IMG/VR virus record: IMGVR_UViG_3300033121_001394
Coordinates: 1 to 64,000 of that record
Strand: one strand, 5' to 3'
Length of the DNA stretch: 64,000 nt
Source of the DNA: a virus
Lineage: Duplodnaviria > Caudoviricetes
Below, one piece after another: positions 19,258 through 31,315 of the stretch. Position numbers and translations under genes: made by a program. The number at the start of each line of letters is the position of its first letter. Position 1 is the first letter of the stretch. Under the pieces are notes generated by a model. It was not told the origin of the DNA. It searched no databases and saw only the letters and a program-made list of their open reading frames with translations.

Positions 19258-19604
19258 AAATTATTATCGCTGGTTCTCGCAGTATTACGGACTATGCCCG
19301 CTGTGAACCTTATTTGTTGCAAAGCCACTTTGATATTACGGAAGTGATTTCGGGCGGGGCATTCGGAGTCGATCATATTGGAGAAGAATTCGCCAGAAAA
19401 CACTGTAAACTCCTTACTATTATGCCGGTTTTACCTTGGGAATGGACCCGCACTAAAACTGCGGGCCATAATAGGAACCTTAGAATGGCCCAATATGCCG
19501 AAGGTTGCATTTTACTCTGGGATAACCGTTCCACAGGAACGCAAAATATGTGGTACCAAGCCAAGAAATTGAATTTACCAATAGAATTACATACTTTAAC
19601 ATGA
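19254..19604 (+). CDS. SLOG (YspA/DUF2493-like) family protein
   Basis: MKIIIAGSR, VISGGAFGVD..GEEFA, AGHNRNLRMA, WDNRSTGT. Confidence 0.8.
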   Translation: MKIIIAGSRSITDYARCEPYLLQSHFDITEVISGGAFGVDHIGEEFARKHCKLLTIMPVLPWEWTRTKTAGHNRNLRMAQYAEGCILLWDNRSTGTQNMWYQAKKLNLPIELHTLT

Positions 19605-19627
19605 AAATCTTCCAGATTTCGGAAACT

Positions 19628-19637
19628 AAGTGTATAG
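19628..19637 (+). promoter_or_regulatory. Putative late promoter motif AAGTGTATAG
   Basis: Intergenic; the first G is 14 nt before the endonuclease ATG. Confidence 0.6.
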
Positions 19638-19643
19638 AAGTAC

Positions 19644-20561
19644 ATGAGACACAAACACGAAGAATCTATTGGTAAAAAATTTGGAAAATTGACAGTTATT
19701 AAGGATTTGGGATATATTAACAGCGGACATAGAGTTTTTGAATGTAAATGCGAGTGCGGGGTCATCAAAAATATCAGAGCTTATGGGCTTTATGATGGAA
19801 CAACTACAAGTTGTGGATGTTATCAACGTCATGTCACAGGGCTTCGTCGTCTTTTAGATTTACGAGGTAAAAGATTTGGTAAACTCGTTGCTTTGGAATC
19901 TAAAAAGGTTAGGCATCGAGTTTACGAATGGAAATGTCAATGTGATTGTGGAAATATACATTATGTTGAAACAAGTTCTTTAACTAGAACAAATCATAGT
20001 ATATTGAGTTGTGGATGTTTACAATGCCCAGATATTACAGGACAGCGTTTTGGACAACTTGTTGTTTTGGGAAAACATGAAACTAAAAATAAAAGAGGTT
20101 ATTGGAAAGCAAAATGTGATTGTGGTCAAGAAACAATAGTTCAAACTGCTAAATTAAACAATGGACATACTCAAACATGTGGATGCAGTCGATTACGAAC
20201 TTGGGAAGAAAGTCCGATGTTTACTGGGTGTGGTAAGGTAAGTGGTAAATATTTTTCAGATATTAAAGCCGGTGCGTTAAGTAGAAATTTAAAATTTGAA
20301 ATTACAGTAAAAGACATGTGGGATTTATTTGTCAAACAAGAAGGTAAATGTGCTTTATCAAAAATCGATATTCATTTTGAAAATTCCAAGAATTATTCGA
20401 GCAAAACCGCTTCCTTAGATCGCATAGATTCTTTAAAAGGATATACTATAGATAATATACAATGGGTTCATAAAGATGTTAATTATATGAAAATGGATTT
20501 AAGCCAAGAAAAATTTATCAACTATTGCAAATTAATAGCTAAAGCTAATGAAAATAAATAA
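19644..20561 (+). mobile_element. Free-standing His-Me finger (HNH-like) homing endonuclease with three N-terminal repeats
   Basis: Three G(K/Q)xFG(K/Q)LxV..CxCG..CGC repeats; C-terminal SLDRIDS.KGY..DNIQWVHKDVN. Confidence 0.75.
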
Positions 20562-21645
20562 TTTACGAGCAAGTTCGATTGGAGAATATCATAATTGTGA
20601 ATTCAAATACTATTTACATTATGATTTGGGTTTAGTTTCAACTGGAAACGCCGCCGCAGAAAAAGGCACATTGTGTCATTTATGTTTGGAACTTATGGCT
20701 AAAGCCAAAAGGATTCATAGATTAAAAGGTAAACGAGGAAAACCAAAAGGAAAAAGAGTTAATCCTGAATATTTACTAGATATTGTTTTCAAAAGATTCC
20801 AAAAAAATAGTAGATTCAATTTAGGCGATGAAGAAAAGGAATTTTGCCGTAAACAGGTGCAGAATGCACTAGCAGTCCCTTTTATTAATCCGCTGAATCT
20901 TAAAGTTCTACGAACGGAACACCAATTTGAGATTACAATCAAGAAACCGGGTTTCTTGATTCAGGGCACCGGAGAATATCTCAAACTACGTGGTACCATT
21001 GATTTAATCACTGAACAAGATAAGGATACTATCCATATTATTGACTACAAAACAGGAAAGTCTACCGATTGGATCACGGGCGAAGATAAAACACACGAAA
21101 AATTAAAAACTGATACACAGTTGAGAATGTATGATTTGGCTATAAAGTATTTATATCCCCAGTATAAGAATCGAATCTTCACCTTATTCTTTACACAAGA
21201 ATCTAAGCCTGTTACAATTTCCTATGATTCCGATGAATGGACTAAAACGCTAGAAGAATTTAGGGGGATCTTCAAGCAGATTCAATCGAATAATAATCCA
21301 ACTCGTCTAATAGATATTAAGGTGAGCGATCAGTGGAAATGCAACTATGTATGTCAGTTTGGTGAATTGGCCGTTAAATTTCAATCTGATGACGGTCAGA
21401 TTATAATCGAAAATTTTAGGAAGAAAAAGGGGATGGTCATTCCTGATGAGATTGTAAGAGACAATATTTCTTATAAGAAACTACCCGGTTATCCTGAAAC
21501 CGTCTGCCAAAAACTCTATAAGAAATTTAATAAACTAGGTATGGATGAATTTCGTAATGAAATGACACAGATTACAATTAACGGTAAAGTATCAGCCAGA
21601 AATGATTATTCAAATCCTAAATTAACTCGATTGGAGATCACCTAA
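20548..21645 (+). CDS. PD-(D/E)XK nuclease (RecB/AddB/Cas4-like exonuclease)
   Basis: RASSI..CEFKY, GTLCH, GTIDL, IDYKTG, QLRMY, C-terminal cysteines. Confidence 0.85.
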   Translation: MKINNLRASSIGEYHNCEFKYYLHYDLGLVSTGNAAAEKGTLCHLCLELMAKAKRIHRLKGKRGKPKGKRVNPEYLLDIVFKRFQKNSRFNLGDEEKEFCRKQVQNALAVPFINPLNLKVLRTEHQFEITIKKPGFLIQGTGEYLKLRGTIDLITEQDKDTIHIIDYKTGKSTDWITGEDKTHEKLKTDTQLRMYDLAIKYLYPQYKNRIFTLFFTQESKPVTISYDSDEWTKTLEEFRGIFKQIQSNNNPTRLIDIKVSDQWKCNYVCQFGELAVKFQSDDGQIIIENFRKKKGMVIPDEIVRDNISYKKLPGYPETVCQKLYKKFNKLGMDEFRNEMTQITINGKVSARNDYSNPKLTRLEIT

Positions 21646-22757
21646 TGCTTAATTTCACCCATTATTCTGTAGGATATGGAATAAGTCATATTGATGAATT
21701 AGTTAAAAGGGCGGCGGAACTTAATTTGCCCTATCTTACTATTACTGACCTAAATAGTCTTGCTGGCTGCCCCGAGTTTTTAGAAACGGTCAATAAAGTT
21801 AATGAGAAACGAGAAAATAAGATTGTACCTATATTAGGGGCAACCTTTACTGTTCGTTTAGGCGAGTCCTTCGGACATATAAGTTTGTTATGTAAGAATA
21901 AGAATGGGTGGCACAATCTGTTAAAAATTTTGTCAACAATGCAGGTTGATAAAGAGGAATTCTTCGAACTTAAAAATATTTTGGCAAACCTTACTAATTT
22001 GGACATAGTGCTTGGGGACTTTGAGGGCCGAGCGGCCCTTGCAAAAATATTGGGGGAAAAGGGTATTCCTTTTACTGAAACCAATGTCCAATCCAACTAT
22101 GTTCGGACAGAGGACAAAATTCTTCATCAAGTGGTTTTAAGTGGGCGGTTAGATTGTACTATTCCAGAAATCCCCCAAGTTATTGAAAAACACAAGGAAT
22201 TTGCTAAGTTCTTTGGAGAGGACATTTTTGCCCTGACTGCGTCGGCCCATCTCAACTTATCTGGCTTTTCCCCATTTTCGCTGAAAGCGAAACCCTTTAT
22301 CCCAAACTTTTCCCTAGACGGGCGATCATACGCCCCACCCGAGGCGGCTGAACTCCTTAAGAATTTATGTAGGGACGGCTGGGCGTCAAGAAAATTAAAC
22401 TGGTTGTGCCGAAACGATCCGGCCCTTAAAGATGTTTATCTTAATAGGATTAAAGAGGAGTTAAAGACCTTTGAAGAGGCCAATCTCTCTAGTTATTTCC
22501 TTATTGTCAAAGACTTAATGAAATATTCTAAAGACAATGGATATAGTTGTGGTTTAAGAGGTTCTGCTTCGGGTTGTTTAATTGCCTATTTGTCAGGAAT
22601 TTCAGACGTTGATCCGATTTGGCCTGACAAAACTATTTCTTACGACCCTAATAAATCTTTGCTTTTTTCTAGATTTTATAATGCAGCACGCATGAATTTT
22701 GGTCAAACATCTTTTACAGAATTTTCGTATGAGAAATTTAAATCTGTGAATAAATGA
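21645..22757 (+). CDS. dnaE: DNA polymerase III alpha, piece 1 (shortened PHP domain plus start of palm)
   Basis: THYS..G, TDLNSLAG, YLNRIKEE..SYFLIV, RGSASGCLIAYLSGISDVDP, LLFSRFYN; ends in TGA before PDxD. Confidence 0.9.
   Translation: MLNFTHYSVGYGISHIDELVKRAAELNLPYLTITDLNSLAGCPEFLETVNKVNEKRENKIVPILGATFTVRLGESFGHISLLCKNKNGWHNLLKILSTMQVDKEEFFELKNILANLTNLDIVLGDFEGRAALAKILGEKGIPFTETNVQSNYVRTEDKILHQVVLSGRLDCTIPEIPQVIEKHKEFAKFFGEDIFALTASAHLNLSGFSPFSLKAKPFIPNFSLDGRSYAPPEAAELLKNLCRDGWASRKLNWLCRNDPALKDVYLNRIKEELKTFEEANLSSYFLIVKDLMKYSKDNGYSCGLRGSASGCLIAYLSGISDVDPIWPDKTISYDPNKSLLFSRFYNAARMNFGQTSFTEFSYEKFKSVNK
22743..22752 (+). promoter_or_regulatory. Putative promoter motif variant GTGAATA
   Basis: The first G (22746) is 14 nt before ATG 22760 of the LAGLIDADG ORF. 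Confidence 0.4.
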
Positions 22758-23524
22758 ATATGACGAAACACGATATAGAGAAATTTGAAAAGTTGGATAA
22801 AAATTCTGCATATTGGTTAGGATTTTTATGGGCAGATGGTTCTACTGATTACCAACCTGATAAAAGTAGATATATAACTAGACTTATGTTGGCTTCTAAA
22901 GATTTAGAACATCTTATTAAATTTAGAAATTATGTAGCACCTCATAGGAAAATTTATGAAAGAAAATCATATAAAGCCTATGAGGTACAAATTAGTAATC
23001 CTACATTATCTAAAAATCTACACCATTTAGGTATTATTACGGATAGAGCATATAATGCTATTTCTTTACCCAAATTAGAAATAAGCTTAATTTCTCACTT
23101 TATAAGAGGTTATTTTGATGGTGATGGCACTATTGGTTTATATGATAATATAGACAAAAGATGTAGTACTATTGGTTTAAAAGTACAATTAAAAATTACA
23201 AGTATAAATAAAAATGTAATTTTAGAATTACATAAAATTTTAGAAAGCAATGGTATTAAAGCAAATATTACTTTAGAGAAAAAAAGAACAGTTTATCATT
23301 TAGTGTGTGCGTCTAGAGCAAGCATAACTAATTTTATTAAATATATTTATCAAGATTCAAATTGCAACATTCGTTTAGAAAGAAAATATGAAAAATCAAT
23401 GGGAATTATGGAATGGTATAATAATAAAGGAAAACCTTATAGTAAATCGACAATTATTCGACGAAGAGATACAAATTGTGGAAAAGATGGAAAAGGGGAA
23501 AGAATATTACCATTATCTATATAA
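22754..23524 (+). mobile_element. Free-standing double-motif LAGLIDADG homing endonuclease between dnaE pieces 1 and 2
   Basis: AYWLGFLWADGS and FIRGYFDGDGTI; no intein splicing blocks. Start is 22754 or 22760. Confidence 0.85.
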
Positions 23525-24254
23525 AAACATAAATTTAGATACAAAAAATACAAGTAATAGTCATATTATGTATGCTGCTGACAAAGTCACAACTATAGAT
23601 AAAAATAAAGGTGTTGTTAGAATAGGAGAAAACTTTGCGGCTCCTGATGTTGACATGGACGTATGCCCCTCTTTTAGAGAAGCAATTAAGAAGTATATTG
23701 TAGATAAATATGGGGCAAATAAGGTTGCTTCTTATATAGCGACATATGCAAGGTACGATGGTAAGGGTGCCTTTAAACAAGTATGTAGGGCACTGGGGAC
23801 GTTGACACCAGAGGAAGTTAATGATATTACTAAGTTCATGATTGATTATGCAAGAATTCAAGATGAACTTGAGGATTTAAAGCAGGAAGATCCCAAATAC
23901 AATACTTTGCGGTATAATTTGGATCACGTCCTTGCCGTGCAACAACTTTATAAGGAATACAAAGAAGAATTTGATCTTGCCGTCCGCATTTCGGACACAA
24001 TTTATTCTAGAAGCAAACACGCCGCAGGCGTAGTAATTTCTCCTAATAATTTAAATGAAAATTTTCCAATTTTTATTGAAAAAGACGGTACAAAAATATT
24101 AGGATTAGAAATGGAATGGGCAGAGTATGTTGGGGCACTTAAATACGACCTTTTATGTGTTGCTGCCTATGAGAAGATTGATAAGATTATAGAGATGATT
24201 AATACGGGTTCGAACGAGCCTGTAGTGGGAATTTTGGAAGAAGATACGGAGTAA
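23388..24254 (+). CDS. dnaE: DNA polymerase III alpha, piece 2 (catalytic palm and thumb)
   Basis: PDVDMD (two catalytic Asp), YIVDKYG, SKHAAGVVI, KYDLL (third Asp). Confidence 0.9.
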   Translation: MKNQWELWNGIIIKENLIVNRQLFDEEIQIVEKMEKGKEYYHYLYKNINLDTKNTSNSHIMYAADKVTTIDKNKGVVRIGENFAAPDVDMDVCPSFREAIKKYIVDKYGANKVASYIATYARYDGKGAFKQVCRALGTLTPEEVNDITKFMIDYARIQDELEDLKQEDPKYNTLRYNLDHVLAVQQLYKEYKEEFDLAVRISDTIYSRSKHAAGVVISPNNLNENFPIFIEKDGTKILGLEMEWAEYVGALKYDLLCVAAYEKIDKIIEMINTGSNEPVVGILEEDTE

Positions 24255-24257
24255 TTA

Positions 24258-24497
24258 ATGTTATTATTATTACCATTACATTTAACCAACCAAGAAAAAA
24301 AGTCGTTTAAAAGAATAGTAGGAAAATATATGATTGAGATTGCCTATCAAAATTCTACTGGTAATTGGCATTATTCTATTTGGTCTGAAAGAGAAGGTAA
24401 GAATAAGTTTATTCAATATGAACATTTTAAAGGCTTTGCTAATTCTCGTGAAAAAGCAGTGCGTAAATGTAATAAATGGTTAGTGAATCGTATTTAA
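24258..24497 (+). CDS. Hypothetical protein
   Basis: Tiles after dnaE piece 2. Confidence 0.45.
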   Translation: MLLLLPLHLTNQEKKSFKRIVGKYMIEIAYQNSTGNWHYSIWSEREGKNKFIQYEHFKGFANSREKAVRKCNKWLVNRI

Positions 24498-24512
24498 TTT
24501 TGCGGAGCAAAT

Positions 24513-24920
24513 ATGGAATATTTTAAAGCACAACGTTATGGTGATGCCGAAGGCAGACAGATCGAAGAAAGAACATATTATACTGCCGGAGGCAAAAAGA
24601 CCAATATTATGGATATGGAGGCAGATGCTTCCCATACTGAGATGGAACTTCCGCCCGAATATTTTGCGGTAGTATTGGTTCCGGCTAATTTGGGAATGTT
24701 ACCTGTTGTTGGTTCCAATCAACAACCTATTGGGGTTGCCCCTCATATTGCCCTTATTGAGAATTTCCTACCAATTCCGGGGGCTAAGACGCCACATGAG
24801 GCAATGCTTAAGGTTGATTCCATCATGGATGGATATAAGAAAAAGACTGAAGAGGCACGGAAACAAAGTAAATTAGTTACGGCCCAAGCCGTTCCTTCTA
24901 CTAAGTTGCATTTATCATGA
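24513..24920 (+). CDS. Hypothetical protein
   Basis: GGAG SD; 135 aa. Confidence 0.55.
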   Translation: MEYFKAQRYGDAEGRQIEERTYYTAGGKKTNIMDMEADASHTEMELPPEYFAVVLVPANLGMLPVVGSNQQPIGVAPHIALIENFLPIPGAKTPHEAMLKVDSIMDGYKKKTEEARKQSKLVTAQAVPSTKLHLS

Positions 24921-25294
24921 GTTCCCAACCTTTCACATTTAAATTTGAGGCGTTGTCTAACGACAACAAGGTTATAGATATCGGAGACATTGTTTATCAA
25001 ATGAGATGTCAAGCGAAGCAGTTACCCGAGGTAATAATCCTAAAAATTTTGGAAAAGATTCCTCAGACACGTAAGTTAAGAGTGGTGACTTTGTCATCAA
25101 AACCCACGGTATACGAAGTACATCCGAAGGATGTAACCACTGATTATAAAGCACTGTGTACCTCTTGGATTACTGATCTTACAGCCGTCGCAGACTTCGT
25201 ACCGCAACAAATTGCTGCGTTGCAGCAAGTAATACAAACGGGTTTACCCGAGGCACCGCAGGTGACTGTAGATAGTAAAGAAATAGAAATATAA
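24917..25294 (+). CDS. Hypothetical protein
   Basis: ATGA-coupled. Confidence 0.55.
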   Translation: MSSQPFTFKFEALSNDNKVIDIGDIVYQMRCQAKQLPEVIILKILEKIPQTRKLRVVTLSSKPTVYEVHPKDVTTDYKALCTSWITDLTAVADFVPQQIAALQQVIQTGLPEAPQVTVDSKEIEI

Positions 25295-25305
25295 GGAGAT
25301 TAGTA

Positions 25306-25929
25306 ATTAATCAGAGAGCAATAATAGTTACAGACACGGAGACTACTGGACTTTCAGTGGACGATGGTCATGAGATTACTGAATTGGCAGCAATTGCCCT
25401 TAATGCCCATGACTTTGAACCTCACCACGCCGGTAAGTTTCAAGTTTTTATTAAGCCCAAGAACCTAGAAATAGTTTCTGCTGGGGCTGTTAAGGTAGCA
25501 AAAGAAAGTTATGAAAAGGCTATGGCTGAGGGTGTGGACGCCAAAGTTGCCATGCGGCACTTTATGGAATTTTGTAATAAGGTTAATGATAAACAGTTAG
25601 ACAGTACCCGCCCCTACCTTGCTGGTCATAACTGCCCCTTTGATTACAAATTTATCAATGTTACTGCAAAGAAATGCGGCCTTATTAAAGGTGACAAAGA
25701 CGCCCCTTGGCACTATCACTTTATCGACACTTTACCTATGATGTTTTGTCTATTTGAGAGTGATCCAACAGTAAATAGGTGGAACCTTGATACTTTGTTA
25801 GGTAAACTTAACATGAAGAGGTCGGGAACGACTCACGGGGCTATGGAGGACGTTGAGTTAACAGCAGAGGCTTTACGTCGTATGCTTAAATTCTTTAGGA
25901 CTGCTTCTAAGAAAATGAAGATTGCTTAG
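25306..25929 (+). CDS. dnaQ: DEDDh 3'-5' exonuclease (DnaQ/epsilon-like), probable ATT start
   Basis: ExoI IVTDTETTGL lies upstream of the called GTG (25357); AGHNCPFD (ExoII); HGAMEDV (ExoIII). SD AAGGAG is 7 nt before ATT 25306. Confidence 0.85.
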   Translation: MNQRAIIVTDTETTGLSVDDGHEITELAAIALNAHDFEPHHAGKFQVFIKPKNLEIVSAGAVKVAKESYEKAMAEGVDAKVAMRHFMEFCNKVNDKQLDSTRPYLAGHNCPFDYKFINVTAKKCGLIKGDKDAPWHYHFIDTLPMMFCLFESDPTVNRWNLDTLLGKLNMKRSGTTHGAMEDVELTAEALRRMLKFFRTASKKMKIA

Positions 25930-26272
25930 CAATTTTAAGAAAGGATACGAAGTATCTATGGCAATTAAACTAGCATTACACGAAAAGGCTTCACCGAAAA
26001 AAACTAAGGCTAAAAATAATACGTTGCACTCTGTGCGACTTATTGTAGATTTTCCAGCAGAAATTACTTCAGAAGATAAAACAGTTTTGGCTAAAATGAC
26101 CAACAGATTGTTAAAGTATGTCTTTGAAGAATCTACTCCTGAAGAATTAACAAAGCGTAATATTAATGTGTATTTAAATGCTTATAAAGATAATAAGAAG
26201 AAGGAAGAGAATTATTTAGTAATTAGTACGAATGGTAATTGGACACCGATTAATTCAATAAATAAATCATGA
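25922..26272 (+). CDS. Hypothetical protein
   Basis: Tiles with its neighbours. Confidence 0.5.
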   Translation: MLSNFKKGYEVSMAIKLALHEKASPKKTKAKNNTLHSVRLIVDFPAEITSEDKTVLAKMTNRLLKYVFEESTPEELTKRNINVYLNAYKDNKKKEENYLVISTNGNWTPINSINKS

Positions 26273-26451
26273 TACCACAAGCAATACCAACTATGGAGGT
26301 TATGGGCGAACCAATCGTCCATACTACTTTGAATCATTCTGAAATTAACCTAACGGCAGCCTATATTATTATAGGTATTTGTATTCTTGGATTACTCTTT
26401 AGGATACCATTAGGTTGTAGAAATCAATCACGGGGTAAATATGAAAACTGA
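26269..26451 (+). CDS. Small single-TM membrane protein
   Basis: Hydrophobic segment LTAAYIIIGICILGLLF. Confidence 0.45.
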   Translation: MIPQAIPTMEVMGEPIVHTTLNHSEINLTAAYIIIGICILGLLFRIPLGCRNQSRGKYEN

Positions 26452-26914
26452 AGTTTTACTAGGAAATGGTGTTGGGGTGGGACCAGACATATGGTTTAAA
26501 AATCCTGTAGAGTTTACGCACTTAGATTTATCGAGCAATTTTTACCATTATAGATGGTTATTTACTCATCATTATGGTCAACATAATAATGCTATACTAC
26601 CTACTTCATATTTAAAACAGATCCAATCCATGACTGTTGAACAATGGTATCAGAGTTGTGGTGATGGTTTTGTTATATTTCCTTTAAGATATCATGGAAT
26701 CAATGAGTCTATTGTAAATTTCTATAAAGATGAAGATTGTATTGTTTGGTTAGGATATGATCGTAAAATTTTACGTAATATTGCTAAAATAACAAAAATA
26801 GTTTGCGAAGAACATTATCCATCAGATGATACTTCTTTATTCTTACGTTTGATTAAATTTAAATATACAAAAGAATATGGGGATAAACCGTGGATTAATA
26901 AGGATTCATTATGA
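26441..26914 (+). CDS. Hypothetical protein
   Basis: 157-aa ORF. Confidence 0.5.
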   Translation: MKTEVLLGNGVGVGPDIWFKNPVEFTHLDLSSNFYHYRWLFTHHYGQHNNAILPTSYLKQIQSMTVEQWYQSCGDGFVIFPLRYHGINESIVNFYKDEDCIVWLGYDRKILRNIAKITKIVCEEHYPSDDTSLFLRLIKFKYTKEYGDKPWINKDSL

Positions 26915-27318
26915 AATATGTTTTTGGACAAAAACACGCAAAATATTTTCAACATTTTGACAGACCTTATTTTACGCACGAGCAAACCATTTGCGGAGTA
27001 GGCCCTTTTTATTCTTTGGACCAAATATTATTGTGTCTACAAAATAGACCTAGTTTAGCCAATCGTATAAAAAAGGCACGGGTCGGTACCTTTATCCAAA
27101 TTTGCAATAGATTAAGTCTTGGTAGTCCACCATATGGTATTAAGGTTATAGATGATGATAGTGTAACTGAATTAATTCATAATTTAAATGAAATCAAGGA
27201 GTTGAACCGTGAATTAAATGCAACGGGGATACCAGAGAGAATCAGAAGAATTAGAAAAAGCATCGAAGAGAAAGAAAACGAATTGTTTGGGAAAAAACCT
27301 AAGGGACACTATGAGTAA
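26911..27318 (+). CDS. Hypothetical protein
   Basis: ATGA-coupled; C-terminal coiled coil. Confidence 0.5.
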   Translation: MKYVFGQKHAKYFQHFDRPYFTHEQTICGVGPFYSLDQILLCLQNRPSLANRIKKARVGTFIQICNRLSLGSPPYGIKVIDDDSVTELIHNLNEIKELNRELNATGIPERIRRIRKSIEEKENELFGKKPKGHYE

Positions 27319-27511
27319 AAAAAGAACAATGAACAATAAGCAAATTGCCCACATTGTTGATAACGAAGGTTTGGGTTATGCTATTACAGATTATATGGGT
27401 TCTGAAGATTTTAAAGATAGACATCTCGCAAAGTTGTGGGATCAGGCAAAAGAAATTTTAGATGAAATTACAGAAATACTAGATGAGGCTAATCCAGATG
27501 GAGAAAACTAA
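27311..27511 (+). CDS. Hypothetical protein
   Basis: ATG 27311 after AAGGGA. Confidence 0.5.
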   Translation: MSKKRTMNNKQIAHIVDNEGLGYAITDYMGSEDFKDRHLAKLWDQAKEILDEITEILDEANPDGEN

Positions 27512-28001
27512 AGATTATCGGCTGGATAGCCGAACAAAAGAGCAGTTTGCGGCAGATATTAAGGCGGCAACGGCCCAAGAAAAGATCCTTATGGGCCTGT
27601 ATGTAGAGTGGTTGAATAAAACGAAGGGCAGTGGTAAAGCCCCCTATTCTTTTACAGATAATGGGGTTGATAACTCGGGAGAATATTTAGAACCCGGTAC
27701 GGCCCATGCCGCCGCCGATTTTATTCTTCACAAAAAGGGTGGAAGAGATAAAAAGATCGAGATAAAATTCTGTAGGCCCGAACGCCCTGAATTTAATTTT
27801 AAGGTTGCCCAAATGGAAAAATACGTCCGAGAGGACGTTTGTATCATAAACTTTATGGGTGTTGAGACACAAAATCGTAGATTTTGTATTTTTACTCCGA
27901 AGGATTTGAAGGAGGCGTTAGCCTCTGGGGAACGTAAACGTTTTTGGCATAAGGATTGTATAAGATTTAAGACGAACCAGCAGAAATGGATAAATGTATG
28001 A
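27498..28001 (+). CDS. Putative restriction-endonuclease-fold protein
   Basis: E..L, ADF..IEIK resembles a PD-(D/E)XK core. Confidence 0.35.
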   Translation: MEKTKDYRLDSRTKEQFAADIKAATAQEKILMGLYVEWLNKTKGSGKAPYSFTDNGVDNSGEYLEPGTAHAAADFILHKKGGRDKKIEIKFCRPERPEFNFKVAQMEKYVREDVCIINFMGVETQNRRFCIFTPKDLKEALASGERKRFWHKDCIRFKTNQQKWINV

Positions 28002-28294
28002 TTTTTCAAATGCCCACCGATGATTTACTTAATGAAGTTAAAATAGCATTAGTCAATAGAATGTTATTTTATGATTGGGAAGTCGATAAACCTGATCCTG
28101 TCAACAGATTAATTTCTACATATTGTGATCATCAGAAAATTTCGGAAGGTTTTGTAAGAACAACTCCTATTAATAACAATTTAATACCTCAGGAAATGAA
28201 TTGTTTACCAATACCATTATCTCGTAAAAAAGATGTGCAGTGGTTTTTGTTACAAAATCTTAAGACTAAAGATATTCATTTTGGAGTATGTTAA
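27998..28294 (+). CDS. Hypothetical protein
   Basis: ATGA-coupled. Confidence 0.5.
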   Translation: MIFQMPTDDLLNEVKIALVNRMLFYDWEVDKPDPVNRLISTYCDHQKISEGFVRTTPINNNLIPQEMNCLPIPLSRKKDVQWFLLQNLKTKDIHFGVC

Positions 28295-28650
28295 TGGGAC
28301 TAACGCACTGGGAAAAATATTACGAAATAGATGCTTCTCATCCCAAAGAAATACGTAAGTTGCTACACAAACATCTTGGAGAGATACATAATTTAGGATG
28401 TTGGTTATTACCAAGAGGCAAGGAATTTAGAAATTACGTTAAGAGTAAGCCAATCGCCCGTAATATTTTTAAGTTTGAATCCTATGATGATATCCACTAC
28501 TATAGAGAGTTTCTTAGGTTGATCGCTAAGAAACAATATAAGAAAGCATACAAGTTATATTGGGATATGGATACTTTTCCTCGTGATTTTATCTCAGAAC
28601 AGTTTAAGACAATTTTAGATTACGCTTGGAACGGCGAACCATATGAATAA
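28288..28650 (+). CDS. Hypothetical protein
   Basis: 120 aa. Confidence 0.5.
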   Translation: MLMGLTHWEKYYEIDASHPKEIRKLLHKHLGEIHNLGCWLLPRGKEFRNYVKSKPIARNIFKFESYDDIHYYREFLRLIAKKQYKKAYKLYWDMDTFPRDFISEQFKTILDYAWNGEPYE

Positions 28651-28711
28651 ACTTGATATCTCCCAAATTAATTACGCCGATACCAAAGATTTTGCGACAT
28701 AAAATCTACTT

Positions 28712-28721
28712 AAAGTGAATA
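28712..28721 (+). promoter_or_regulatory. Putative promoter motif variant AAAGTGAATA
   Basis: Intergenic; the first G (28715) is 14 nt before ATG 28729. Confidence 0.5.
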
Positions 28722-28728
28722 ATTCTAC

Positions 28729-29742
28729 ATGAATAAACCAGAAACGAATGATATTGAGCGTCAAATATGCACAGATTATGAAAACTTTGAGATTTCTATT
28801 AAAGAAATATCTAAAAAATTTAAGGTACATAGTTTTTTTATTTATCAGACTTTGCAAAAATACAATATACCTAGAAGAAGAGTGGCCGCAGGCTGTTCAC
28901 AAAATACTGTTTATAAAGTGCCAAGAGATGATCATCCGTTGATAATTGAAAAATATAAAAGGGGTGCTAGTTTAAAAGAAATAGGACAAAAATACGGAGT
29001 TACCGAATCTTGTATTTCAATTATTATAAGAACTTATGGTGTACAAGGACGAACTCGCAAATATCGTTTAAAAGAAAATTTTTTTGAAACTATCAATTCT
29101 GAAGAAAAGGCTTATTTTCTTGGATTTTTATTTGCTGACGGGCATAATAACACTCAGAAAAAACAAATTAGTTTACAATTAGCGTGTAAAGATAAAGAAA
29201 TTTTAGACCAATTTAACAAGATCATTTATCTAGATGAAAAACCTTTGTATTTTCGTAAAGGCAAAGCGGTTTTGATAAAAGGTAAACCGGCTAATCGCAC
29301 TGATTCTTATTGTTTGGAAATTAATTCTACAAAAATATCAGATGATTTAGCACATCTTGGTTGCGTAAGACAAAAGACAATTAAATGTTTCCCTCCAACA
29401 CTTAAATTAGAATTTTTTAAACATTTTTTAAGAGGTTATTTTGATGGGGATGGGTGTCTGTGTATTCCAAAAATAGAATTTAATAGAGGAGGTGCGATAC
29501 AAATTGCTGTAAACAAACCTTTTGGATTGGAAATTATTAAAGAATTATCTAAATATTTAGACATCAATATACATTTATATCAATCTTCTCACAAAAATAT
29601 GCTATATTATATAACTATTGGTGGCATACATCAAATTAAAAAATTTATGGATTTCATTTATCAAGATGCACAATTTTTCTTGAAACGTAAGAAGGAAAAA
29701 TACGAGGAGTTTAATAGATTATATGAAGCACACTGTCATTGA
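28729..29742 (+). mobile_element. Free-standing LAGLIDADG homing endonuclease with N-terminal HTH repeats, directly upstream of dnaE piece 3
   Basis: Two helix-turn-helix-like units (SIKEISKKF; SLKEIGQKY), AYFLGFLFADGH and FLRGYFDGDGCL; no intein blocks. Confidence 0.85.
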
Positions 29743-31315
29743 TTACAAAGATGAAAAAACATGGGATCTCCTATGTTCCGGTGCGACTAAAAATGTTTTT
29801 CAGTGTGAAAGTAGACTTTTGCAACATTGGCTTAAAAAAATAAAACCTAGGAATTTATGGGAATTATCTATTGTCTTAAGCCTTATTAGACCCGGTTGTC
29901 TTACCACAAATATTATTGATGATTATCTTGGTTACAGAAATAAAACAAAAGAATTTGAATCAATACATCCAGTTGTTGATGAGATATTAAAAACCACAGA
30001 CCATTCAATGGTCTTTCAAGAAAGTTTAATGTTGATTGGTGCTAAACTTGCATGGCCCCATTTGCCTGACAAAGAACGATCGTTAAAGGTGGATGAACTT
30101 AGAAAGGCTGTAGGTAAAAAGAATCAGGAAAAGATTCTTAAGATTGGTAAGGAATTCGTAGAAGGTTGTTTAGTTAATAAAGTTGATCAAGATGTTGCAG
30201 ACAAACTATTTGAGATTATTAAATCCTGCGGTCGATATCTTTTTAACCTTTCTCATGCGTTTGCTTATGCAGTGAAGGCTTACGAAACCGCATATCTTAA
30301 GGCTAATTATCCATTACAATCCCTTGCTGTGTACTTAAGTTATGCCCAATTTAAACAGGCTCATAAAAAAGAGGGTAAAACTTTCGGTGGTAAATGGAAC
30401 GAGATTGAAGAAATCGTGAATGAGGGCCGGAAGTACCTTAGCGTGGAACTCCTCGCCCCTAATATTAATTCTAAAAATGAGAATTTTGCAATAGAGAATG
30501 GGGCAATTCGGTATGGTTTAGGTCATATTAAGTACTTTGGTAATAGTATAGATAAAGTTAAGAAGTTGCCTCGGATTGATAAATGGCAGCAAGTATTGCT
30601 GTTGCTTTGTACTGATAGATTTGGTTTTAAACTTAAAGCAACTACTGGCGAAGCCCTTATTAAAACTGGCTGCTTCGCAGACACTAAGGTTAGTAGGTCC
30701 GACCTACTAACCGCTTATACATTGGCGGCAAGCCTAACTGAACGAGAGATGGAAAAATTAGCCGACTTGTTAGAAAATAATTCCGACCAACCAATAACCT
30801 CTTTAAAAGATTTACTTACAAACGTGGTAAGTATAGCCACCAAAAGAAGAAAAGAAACTTTAGAAGATGAAATTAAACTTCTAAAACTCAACCAATTCGA
30901 CAATCCCCAATGGGTAGAACAGGTTGAAAAACACTATATGGGCCTGCCCATTAATACTACCGCTCTTGATAATATCTCTGAACAAGCCGGTTATGGTTGT
31001 CAAGACTTACATGATAGTTTGCCCCTTTATACCACTCGTCAGATTCATGTTATTATCGATGAGGTAAAGACTACAGTTACTAAAACTGGGAAAAACCCCG
31101 GTCAAGAGATGTGCTTTGTAACGGGGCACGATGCTACGGGTAAGGTTGATCGCTTACCCATTTTCCCTGAATTGTATGCCACCCTAAAAGATGATCTATT
31201 TCCCCCACAAATGTTTTGCTTAACAGTACATAAAGGTAAGGGCGGCTGGTTTGTTAAAGAAGGATATAAACTTGACACCACTAGAGATTCTGGAAAAATG
31301 CAATTATCTAATTAA
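29723..31315 (+). CDS. dnaE: DNA polymerase III alpha, piece 3 (fingers, HhH, OB)
   Basis: TWDLLCSG..VFQCES, LIRPG, VFQESLM, LRKAVGKK, FNLSHAFAY, PNIN.S, IRYGLGHIK, C-terminal OB region. Confidence 0.9.
   Translation: MKHTVIDYKDEKTWDLLCSGATKNVFQCESRLLQHWLKKIKPRNLWELSIVLSLIRPGCLTTNIIDDYLGYRNKTKEFESIHPVVDEILKTTDHSMVFQESLMLIGAKLAWPHLPDKERSLKVDELRKAVGKKNQEKILKIGKEFVEGCLVNKVDQDVADKLFEIIKSCGRYLFNLSHAFAYAVKAYETAYLKANYPLQSLAVYLSYAQFKQAHKKEGKTFGGKWNEIEEIVNEGRKYLSVELLAPNINSKNENFAIENGAIRYGLGHIKYFGNSIDKVKKLPRIDKWQQVLLLLCTDRFGFKLKATTGEALIKTGCFADTKVSRSDLLTAYTLAASLTEREMEKLADLLENNSDQPITSLKDLLTNVVSIATKRRKETLEDEIKLLKLNQFDNPQWVEQVEKHYMGLPINTTALDNISEQAGYGCQDLHDSLPLYTTRQIHVIIDEVKTTVTKTGKNPGQEMCFVTGHDATGKVDRLPIFPELYATLKDDLFPPQMFCLTVHKGKGGWFVKEGYKLDTTRDSGKMQLSN

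Follow-up and report, generated by a model that had tools for sequence, protein, structure and literature searches.

How can a replicative DNA polymerase work when its gene is broken in the middle of the catalytic domain and neither an intein nor an intron appears to rejoin the parts? The question is raised by IMG/VR record IMGVR_UViG_3300033121_001394, a viral contig (Caudoviricetes) in which the gene for the α subunit of DNA polymerase III (dnaE) lies in three pieces, accompanied by two free-standing homing endonuclease genes of the LAGLIDADG type (HEG1 and HEG2). The window, i.e. the whole stretch of DNA that was analysed, is the first 64 kb of this 85.6-kb contig, for which CheckV gives a completeness of ~ 53%. 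A first-pass annotation had proposed a three-chain replicase, with homing endonuclease genes exploiting or having created both break points. Comparison with relatives leads us to a modified answer. With a probability of roughly 0.72, the replicase α subunit would be a non-covalent assembly of three polypeptides that arose from one old cut, one recent cut by a mobile cassette and a separate insertion of HEG2.

Three open reading frames encode DnaE

Taken together, the three pieces (Table 1) have the hallmarks of a DnaE-type polymerase of the C family: a PHP domain, a palm with the GS motif and three catalytic aspartates. They do not form a single chain, being three intact open reading frames (ORFs) with stops and other genes between them, and they are the sole dnaE matches in the 85.6-kb contig. 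Piece 1 has PHP (PF02811) at amino acids (aa) 5–129, positions 2–99 of PF07733 and the motif GLRGSASG, and continues for 21 aa beyond ...RFYNAAR (the tail, encoded by 22691–22754 and cassette-borne). Piece 2 has PDVDMD and KYD and covers positions 100–259 of PF07733; the match starts only at aa 84, after an 83-aa head.

Pfam and PHROG thus bear out the domains that had been assigned to pieces 1 and 2, with PHP and RGS on the former and the Asp triad on the latter. For piece 3, the fingers and helix-hairpin-helix (HhH) domains were recovered, but the OB fold (PF01336) that had also been assigned to it gave no Pfam match at E ≤ 0.01; this fold was matched in some homologous C-halves and in proteins P0008 and P0011. 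As had likewise been proposed, about a dozen ORFs separate pieces 2 and 3 and include a DnaQ-like gene. The GC content of the window is ~ 35%, and the genes of the examined stretch (19–34 kb) are tightly packed on the plus strand. A megablast search of the region against GenBank phages gave no match, and tblastn gave only matches of ≤ 32% identity.

A mobile cassette interrupts the N-half gene at the catalytic strand

The viral locus L003, a relative with 90% protein identity, has an unbroken N-half of 560 aa and no endonuclease at the site of the piece 1–piece 2 cut. As determined by blastn and by reading the junctions, the HEG1 cassette stands in place of 25 nucleotides (nt) of this empty allele, around L003 6092–6116, and the homology of piece 1 to L003 stops at 22690. 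Apart from the direction of the event, the comparison demonstrates that the N-half gene carries a mobile cassette of ~ 950 nt between RFYNAAR and PDVDMD, at the catalytic strand.

Identity to L003 upstream of the cassette is 95–98% and drops to 80% over the last 180 nt; downstream it is 72–75% for 120 nt and then 92–100%. Such gradients point to gene conversion around this site, most likely by homing. Together with the empty site of L003, they make HEG1 a putative cutter of the empty allele. The window may have gained the cassette by homing, or L003 may have lost it by conversion from an empty allele.

A 180-nt patch within piece 1 (21825–22000) is 67–77% identical to L003 in surroundings of 92–98% and looks like a separate small recombination tract.

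The conserved part of HEG1 ends near aa 220, and the acidic residues of both its motifs (LGFLWADGS and IRGYFDGDG) are kept. The gene starts in a 4-nt overlap with the piece 1 stop (ATGA) and overlaps the start of piece 2 by 137 nt. Orthologs occupy the same site in L024 (43% identity), L106, L111 and L112. We found at least 567 relatives in viral contigs, with identities of ≤ 41%; the values of 41% and 39% come from short partial matches, and all others are ≤ 36%. Of these loci, 80 were fetched, and none adjoins dnaE.

The first-pass annotation had noticed that a LAGLIDADG gene overlaps the start of both downstream pieces, and this is correct (137 nt for HEG1, 20 nt for HEG2). It had also suggested a comparison with endonuclease-free alleles in relatives, which L003 now provides, being unbroken at the HEG1 site and devoid of HEG2. 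The likeness that it drew to nrdA/mobE of phage Aeh1 is upheld for the first cut by the intact L003 allele and the free-standing endonuclease. Its proposal that the endonuclease fractured the gene stands in part: an endonuclease is in the gene and L003 is unbroken, but the break is not a bare fracture, since the protein module surrounding it also occurs unsplit or split without an endonuclease.

The cut lies within a conserved insertion module

The site of the cut is inside a conserved insertion module of ~ 100 aa that consists of the 21-aa piece 1 tail and the 83-aa piece 2 head. A phmmer search with the head alone against 1.84 billion representatives returned 10 proteins, nine of which were confirmed as DnaE by Pfam. 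These were five stand-alone head–palm proteins (285–298 aa), one shorter fragment, two head–palm–fingers fusions (816 and 896 aa) and P0005 (678 aa), in which tail and head are contiguous in frame between RFxNxGR and SIPDIDCD. Two independent 1.6-kb assemblies encode P0002, whose alignment with piece 2 begins at Met1 and spans 98% of the protein at 46% identity; the gene upstream, overlapping the P0002 start, is a HEG1 ortholog (43% identical). The L112 product and P0008 agree in palm-core sequence and in length (816 aa). Scanning DNA with a degenerate pattern that encodes N..NS[YH]IM[YW]...KV yielded ten further viral loci (L106–L115); a strict module pattern gave five chance matches, none of them in dnaE, in 185,579 bacterial and archaeal genomes.

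The relatives show the site in several states. It is empty in L003–L023. In L108, L109, L114 and P0005, the module is present in frame without a split, and the segment following RFxNxxR is homologous to the piece 1 tail. In L113 (9-nt gap) and L110 (72-nt gap), a stop and restart divide the module without an endonuclease between the parts; in the window, L024, L106, L111 and L112, the split contains a LAGLIDADG gene. The 3′ end of the endonuclease gene overlaps the head start in all five endonuclease-bearing loci. L107 and L115 have head, palm and fingers without an adjacent piece 1.

The split in L113 is a single stop with an ATG three codons further on in the same frame (L113:500–520), and that in L110 is a 72-nt spacer with several stops (L110:895–968). 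Such endonuclease-free splits either are remnants left by a lost endonuclease or mark places of restart or bypass. In L107 (384–2729, minus strand) and L115 (693–1805), head, palm and fingers form one protein with only small unrelated genes upstream. We found no PHP/palm-N piece within 6 kb of either gene; piece 1 may be encoded elsewhere or be missing.

In a tree of the palm core (205 aa), module-bearing and empty alleles are interleaved, so that at least four state changes are required. The window is sister to the empty L003, with a core identity of 95%, and P0005 and L024, whose modules are closest to its own, also have the closest palm cores among module-bearing alleles. Ten columns of the module do not vary, which shows that it is under selection, whatever its origin.

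One may ask whether the module is simply an old, lineage-specific insertion domain of the palm with a function of its own, invaded secondarily and without a role in holding the pieces together. The fused forms lacking an endonuclease (P0005, L108, L109 and L114) would be expected from such a history, the ten invariant residues are mostly polar or aromatic and suggest a specific function, and the divergence of the module tracks that of the host gene. Set against these are the empty site of the 90%-identical L003 with its conversion-type flank gradients, the patchy distribution on the tree, and the finding that all splits share one location, the module linker, whether an endonuclease is present or not. 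We consider an old domain of this kind improbable.

The AlphaFold2 model of the fused P0005 has a DnaE fold with a predicted local distance difference test score (pLDDT) of 83 and matches 7pu7, 4jom and 2hpi at E ~ 1e-30. The head is helical in this model at pLDDT 68–80, and the position of the HEG1 gene corresponds to the low-pLDDT linker of the module. Folded alone (100 aa; 12 sequences, with an alignment from which polymerase rows were excluded), the module gave four helices at pLDDT 66.

Some alignments suggest where the module came from. MAFFT placed the piece 1 tails ([HN][IV]SFxE[FY]) on the true catalytic strand (H[IV]S[LM]PDID). The best hhalign alignment of the head profile was colinear and matched E..[IV]......YY.[HY]I of the head to E...[IVF]......YFLIV of the polymerase. 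When the head was compared with the end of piece 1 as its possible duplicate, 595 of 2000 shuffles scored as high or higher in Smith–Waterman alignments; hhalign gave nothing with two sequences, and with 19 sequences the colinear alignment was best at E = 0.47. Searches with the module gave no match in the Protein Data Bank (PDB) by Foldseek, only noise (E ≥ 0.65) in a sequence-profile search of the PDB, and no usable match in the ESM Atlas. Because the sequence statistics are not significant and Foldseek found no match, we rate only slightly above even the odds that the module is a decayed tandem duplicate of the N-terminal palm segment and catalytic strand.

The palm–fingers cut is old and widely shared

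The relatives that we first fetched came from a scan of viral contigs with piece 3, which yielded 21 loci of 30–90% identity. All 21 encode the equivalent of pieces 1 and 2 as a single ORF of 540–627 aa; the counterpart of piece 3 always follows 632 nt to 7.3 kb downstream, as a gene of its own in a different frame. None has a homolog of either window endonuclease at the palm–fingers cut. The gap contains a PF00929 exonuclease gene in every relative tested (by tblastn or Pfam), and in the simplest loci, L012 and L015, all three genes (dnaE-N, exonuclease and dnaE-C) overlap stop to start. At least 198 database protein clusters of ~ 500–545 aa have fingers/HhH Pfam domains without a PHP or palm domain. 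The fused forms P0008, P0011 and L107 place the cut in the loop that joins the final helix of the palm to the first one of the fingers. HEG2 is not at this cut, as it lies 15 codons inside the C-half gene.

These data demonstrate that the palm–fingers cut dates back to the ancestor of a large clade of uncultured phages, in which the gene order is dnaE-N, exonuclease, dnaE-C. The cut is not endonuclease-made, and only the piece 1–piece 2 cut is specific to the lineage of the window. The proposal that homing endonuclease genes exploited or created both break points is therefore not supported for the second one. A published description of such a two-piece phage DnaE (N-half, exonuclease, C-half) was not found in our literature search. 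The window shares with the two-gene DnaE of its relatives the break between palm and fingers, the DnaQ-like gene in the gap and the lack of an intein; it differs by a third piece and by the endonuclease cassette that occupies the 5′ end of its C-half gene.

Two side observations concern this gap. Between the dnaE halves, the window has ~ 1.3 kb of extra small ORFs (26301–27309 and 27990–28300; also given as 26269–27318 and 27986–28294) that are absent from L003 and have no Pfam or PHROG match. In L114 (7248–8252, minus strand), a 334-aa protein with three DUF4379 treble-clef zinc-finger repeats is encoded in the gap, directly after the fused N-half.

A second cassette displaces the start of the C-half gene

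The left end of the C-half gene is preserved as a stub, of which 28643–28687 is near-identical in DNA to L003 9977–10021 (98% up to the left junction). After a 26-nt spacer comes HEG2, with the acidic residues of both motifs (LGFLFADGH and LRGYFDGDG) kept. A new ATG overlaps the HEG2 stop, and its 18 codons are homologous to, but diverged from, the N-terminus of L003. The replacement reads IDYKDEKTW, which is exactly the motif of the L012/L015 clade; L003 has INYADTKTW. To the right of the cassette, identity to L003 is 55–83% (60-nt windows) for ~ 540 nt and then patchy at 68–100%. This pattern is that of a one-sided co-conversion from a diverged donor. HEG2 is clearly a separate, later free-standing cassette, inserted after codon 15 of the C-half gene, which stranded the old start and brought a donor-derived one. 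An L003-type empty site would be its putative target. No close HEG2 relative was found in viral contigs. L106 has a LAGLIDADG gene of another family (PF03161) at the HEG2 position, which indicates that the 5′ end of the C-half gene attracts endonucleases repeatedly.

A third endonuclease gene of the window (HNH, phrog_374; 19644–20561) lies directly after the old start (ATGAAAAT) of a PD-(D/E)XK exonuclease gene, which restarts at 20548, overlapping the end of the HNH gene (region 19550–20700). The first ~ 49 codons of the exonuclease gene are diverged from L003, and the rest is > 90% identical. The HNH insertion thus shares the anatomy of HEG2, an endonuclease gene plus a replacement 5′ end. 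An element GTG[A/T]ATA[A/G] is located 0–10 nt before the ATG of all three endonuclease genes (AAGTGTATAG, CTGTGAATAA and AAGTGAATAA; 19620–19643, 22735–22753 and 28700–28728). It is possibly a shared promoter or regulatory element. A promoter scan was not above shuffled controls.

Table 1. Features of the dnaE region, with coordinates in the window
Feature	Coordinates	Strand	Description and evidence
dnaE piece 1	21645–22757	+	370 aa; PHP and N-terminal palm with GRGS motif; Pfam, PHROG
HEG1 cassette	22691–23642	+	Tail, stop, LAGLIDADG gene, start and 83-aa head of piece 2; blastn against L003
HEG1	22754–23524	+	Two-motif LAGLIDADG endonuclease, 256 aa; PF14528, PF00961, phrog_4645
dnaE piece 2	23388–24254	+	288 aa; conserved 83-aa head (23388–23636), then catalytic palm and thumb; Pfam, PHROG
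DnaQ-like 3′–5′ exonuclease gene	25357–25929	+	PF00929, phrog_192; ORF as listed begins at GTG 25357
Stub	28643–28702	+	Original C-half start and first 15 codons, 4 foreign codons, stop (19 codons)
HEG2 cassette	28688–29776	+	Short leader, HTH-LAGLIDADG gene, replacement start and 18 codons for piece 3; replaces L003 10022–10039
HEG2	28729–29742	+	Helix-turn-helix (HTH) and LAGLIDADG endonuclease, 337 aa; PF14528, PF13384, phrog_4645 at 1e-58
dnaE piece 3	29723–31315	+	530 aa; fingers, HhH/beta-binding region, C-terminal region; PF17657, PF14579; phrog_405 positions 625–1054

The pieces are maintained by selection

The ratio of nonsynonymous to synonymous substitution rates (dN/dS) relative to L003 is 0.115 for piece 1, 0.071 for piece 2 and 0.076 for piece 3, with 0.045 for the exonuclease gene. 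All three pieces are under purifying selection. The same split is kept in lineages that are only 30–46% identical. Moreover, the GRGS motif is on piece 1, the Asp triad is on piece 2 and the head has no GRGS loop, so that piece 1 cannot be dispensable. This location of the motifs supports the earlier proposal that the palm is built from two chains.

These results bear on the possibility that HEG1 killed the N-half gene, leaving pieces 1 and 2 as young pseudogene fragments while a polymerase of the host or one encoded off the contig is used. A contig that is only about half complete and an unbroken N-half in the closest relative are what this would predict. Decay, however, is not what we see. 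Both ORFs are intact with all motifs, their dN/dS of 0.07–0.12 is the same as that of neighbouring genes, and the overlapping stops and starts, which are signals of translational coupling, are kept. The same split, head and tail also recur in the 30–46% identical lineages, with and without an endonuclease. We regard inactivation as very unlikely.

Splicing does not appear to rejoin the pieces

The frame shared by pieces 1 and 2 is packed with stops between them, which excludes an in-frame intein, and no Hint or intein Pfam domain was found in any dnaE piece. The 1107-aa C-half of L113 (L113:3817–7140) serves as a control: Pfam detected in it a full intein (Intein_splicing and LAGLIDADG_3) and a second Hint module, and the test therefore works in this protein family. 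This polymerase family is therefore a target of true inteins, of free-standing endonucleases and of the non-splicing module alike. The module has no conserved intein end residues, its first residue being M, C, S, N or F and its last F, Y, V, I or T; in the window the + 1 residue is Ala, and there is neither an HN nor a conserved + 1 nucleophile, nor any Cys in the head. Rfam searches for group I introns or other credible RNA gave no match at the gathering score in the whole window and none at E ≤ 5 or 10 in three narrower stretches. Between the ORFs of piece 1, HEG1 and piece 2, there are no non-coding bases; with the piece 1 stop overlapping the HEG1 start and the 137-nt overlap of HEG1 with piece 2, no room is left for a ribozyme. 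The earlier claims that the junctions lack split-intein termini and that the three-chain DnaE is free of inteins and introns are accordingly sustained.

LAGLIDADG genes are classic passengers of introns, and HEG1, alone or together with HEG2, could in principle reside in a group I intron whose removal by RNA splicing restores the N-half and leaves two chains or one. Pieces 1 and 2 share one frame, as do the stub and piece 3, and manual inspection finds a U at – 1 and a terminal G close to both junctions. The missing ribozyme match (Intron_gpI or other, at the gathering score or at E ≤ 10 on narrow windows) and the missing non-coding sequence speak against it, as do three properties of the coding sequence. 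The initiator Met of the head aligns with Met1 of stand-alone homologs; relatives lacking the endonuclease have tail and head joined in frame, and both are conserved at the protein level; and the HEG2 target segment is present twice, as stub and replacement, which an intron would not produce. RNA splicing therefore has very little in its favour.

Tail and head could also be taken for the halves of a very divergent or degenerate split intein that ligates, or once ligated, pieces 1 and 2, given that their sizes (21 and 83 aa) recall atypically split inteins and that the module is distributed like a mini-intein, with empty, endonuclease-free and endonuclease-bearing states at a conserved catalytic site. 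A free-standing endonuclease gene (HEG1) between the halves of an enzyme gene is, moreover, the arrangement of the fractured genes of Dassa et al. 2009 (PMC2677866), but the negative Pfam result with its positive control in L113, the variable module ends without HN or + 1 nucleophile, the Cys-free head, a predicted fold that is helical when Hint is all-beta, and structural matches to the polymerase palm make this explanation very unlikely.

A probable three-chain assembly

We therefore return to the non-covalent assembly of three polypeptides. Four points weigh against it. With a contig that is ~ 53% complete, an intact dnaE may exist elsewhere in the genome, which, with these pieces decaying, the first-pass annotation had itself named as fatal to its proposal; the 85.6 kb at hand contain no other dnaE match. 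In the P0005 model, tail and linker have pLDDT values of 44–52, and docking of the tail is thus not predicted. The Rfam model for group I introns is insensitive to introns that contain ORFs. Finally, because the divergence of the module tracks that of the host gene (46–50% versus ~ 46–49%), loss by L003 fits as well as gain by the window.

If the assembly exists, the DnaQ-like exonuclease is probably part of it, and tail and head may serve the docking of pieces 1 and 2. If the module is a duplicate, the tail would represent the catalytic strand in decayed form, and the head the part of the palm in front of the catalytic aspartates. Piece 1 (GRGS) and piece 2 (Asp triad) would jointly build the real palm, and the pseudo-strand of piece 1 would pack on the pseudo-palm of piece 2. 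The duplicated surfaces may in this way let the two pieces dock without splicing. We tentatively propose, at clearly less than even odds, that the module is a portable split-tolerance device, created by tandem duplication and travelling with a LAGLIDADG gene, that lets fragments dock unspliced in the catalytic centre. If true, this would be a third way, beside introns and inteins, to keep a homing endonuclease harmless in an essential gene, and a concrete route to gene breakage without a lethal intermediate.

The active site of Pol III α can apparently be built from two chains, one with GRGS and the other with the Asp triad, plus a separate fingers chain, which bears on polymerase engineering and split-enzyme design. 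For annotation, the lesson is that such phage dnaE genes can easily be taken for fragments or pseudogenes.

Comparison with known systems

The closest known system appears to be nrdA-a/mobE/nrdA-b of phage Aeh1, reportedly described as genes in pieces by Friedrich et al. in 2007. Both have a free-standing homing endonuclease in an essential replication-related gene, with no intron and no intein, both have close relatives with an unbroken gene, and in both, function is presumed to be kept by non-covalent assembly. We know of no adaptor module in Aeh1; the window endonuclease, in contrast, travels with coding add-ons on both fragments, which make up a ~ 100-aa module also found unsplit. The window cut also differs in that it lies at the catalytic strand of a polymerase and in a protein that already has a second, older cut. 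The Aeh1 case is listed in a review (PMC2988022).

Dassa et al. 2009 (PMC2677866) described fractured genes, with a split intein and a free-standing endonuclease, including three phage-like DnaE loci; their loci carry GIY-YIG or Vsr-like enzymes. As in the window, the order is half, endonuclease, half, in phage-like metagenomic DNA with DnaE among the hosts, and a series leads from an unsplit insert to a split insert with an endonuclease. Unlike theirs, the window insert has no Hint domain or splicing residues and is predicted to be helical and palm-like, and its endonuclease is of the LAGLIDADG type. In the cyanobacterial split DnaE (Ssp/Npu DnaE split intein, cited within PMC2677866), the Pol III α subunit likewise comes from separate genes, but its halves are encoded at distant loci and are ligated by a split intein at another site, whereas the window has no intein at either cut and its pieces lie in one operon-like block.

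The window also resembles T4 mobA/gene 60, in that an endonuclease cassette brings along an additional element by which the invaded essential gene stays functional, and the outcome is a split gene. Bonocora et al. are said to have described this T4 cassette in 2011. Its extra element is an RNA bypass signal (bioRxiv 10.1101/2022.08.31.505936), whereas that of the window is protein-coding and consists of tail, head and a new stop and start.

What is new here is that one polymerase carries both cuts, that HEG2 has its stub-plus-replacement anatomy, that identity changes in gradients along the flanks, and that a structural link between module and palm is proposed. The question of how an essential gene can break without a dead intermediate was posed by Dassa et al. 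2009 (PMC2677866). The window and its relatives show empty, in-frame, split without endonuclease and split with endonuclease states at one site, and a possible answer to that question is that overlapping duplicated segments allow the fragments to complement each other.

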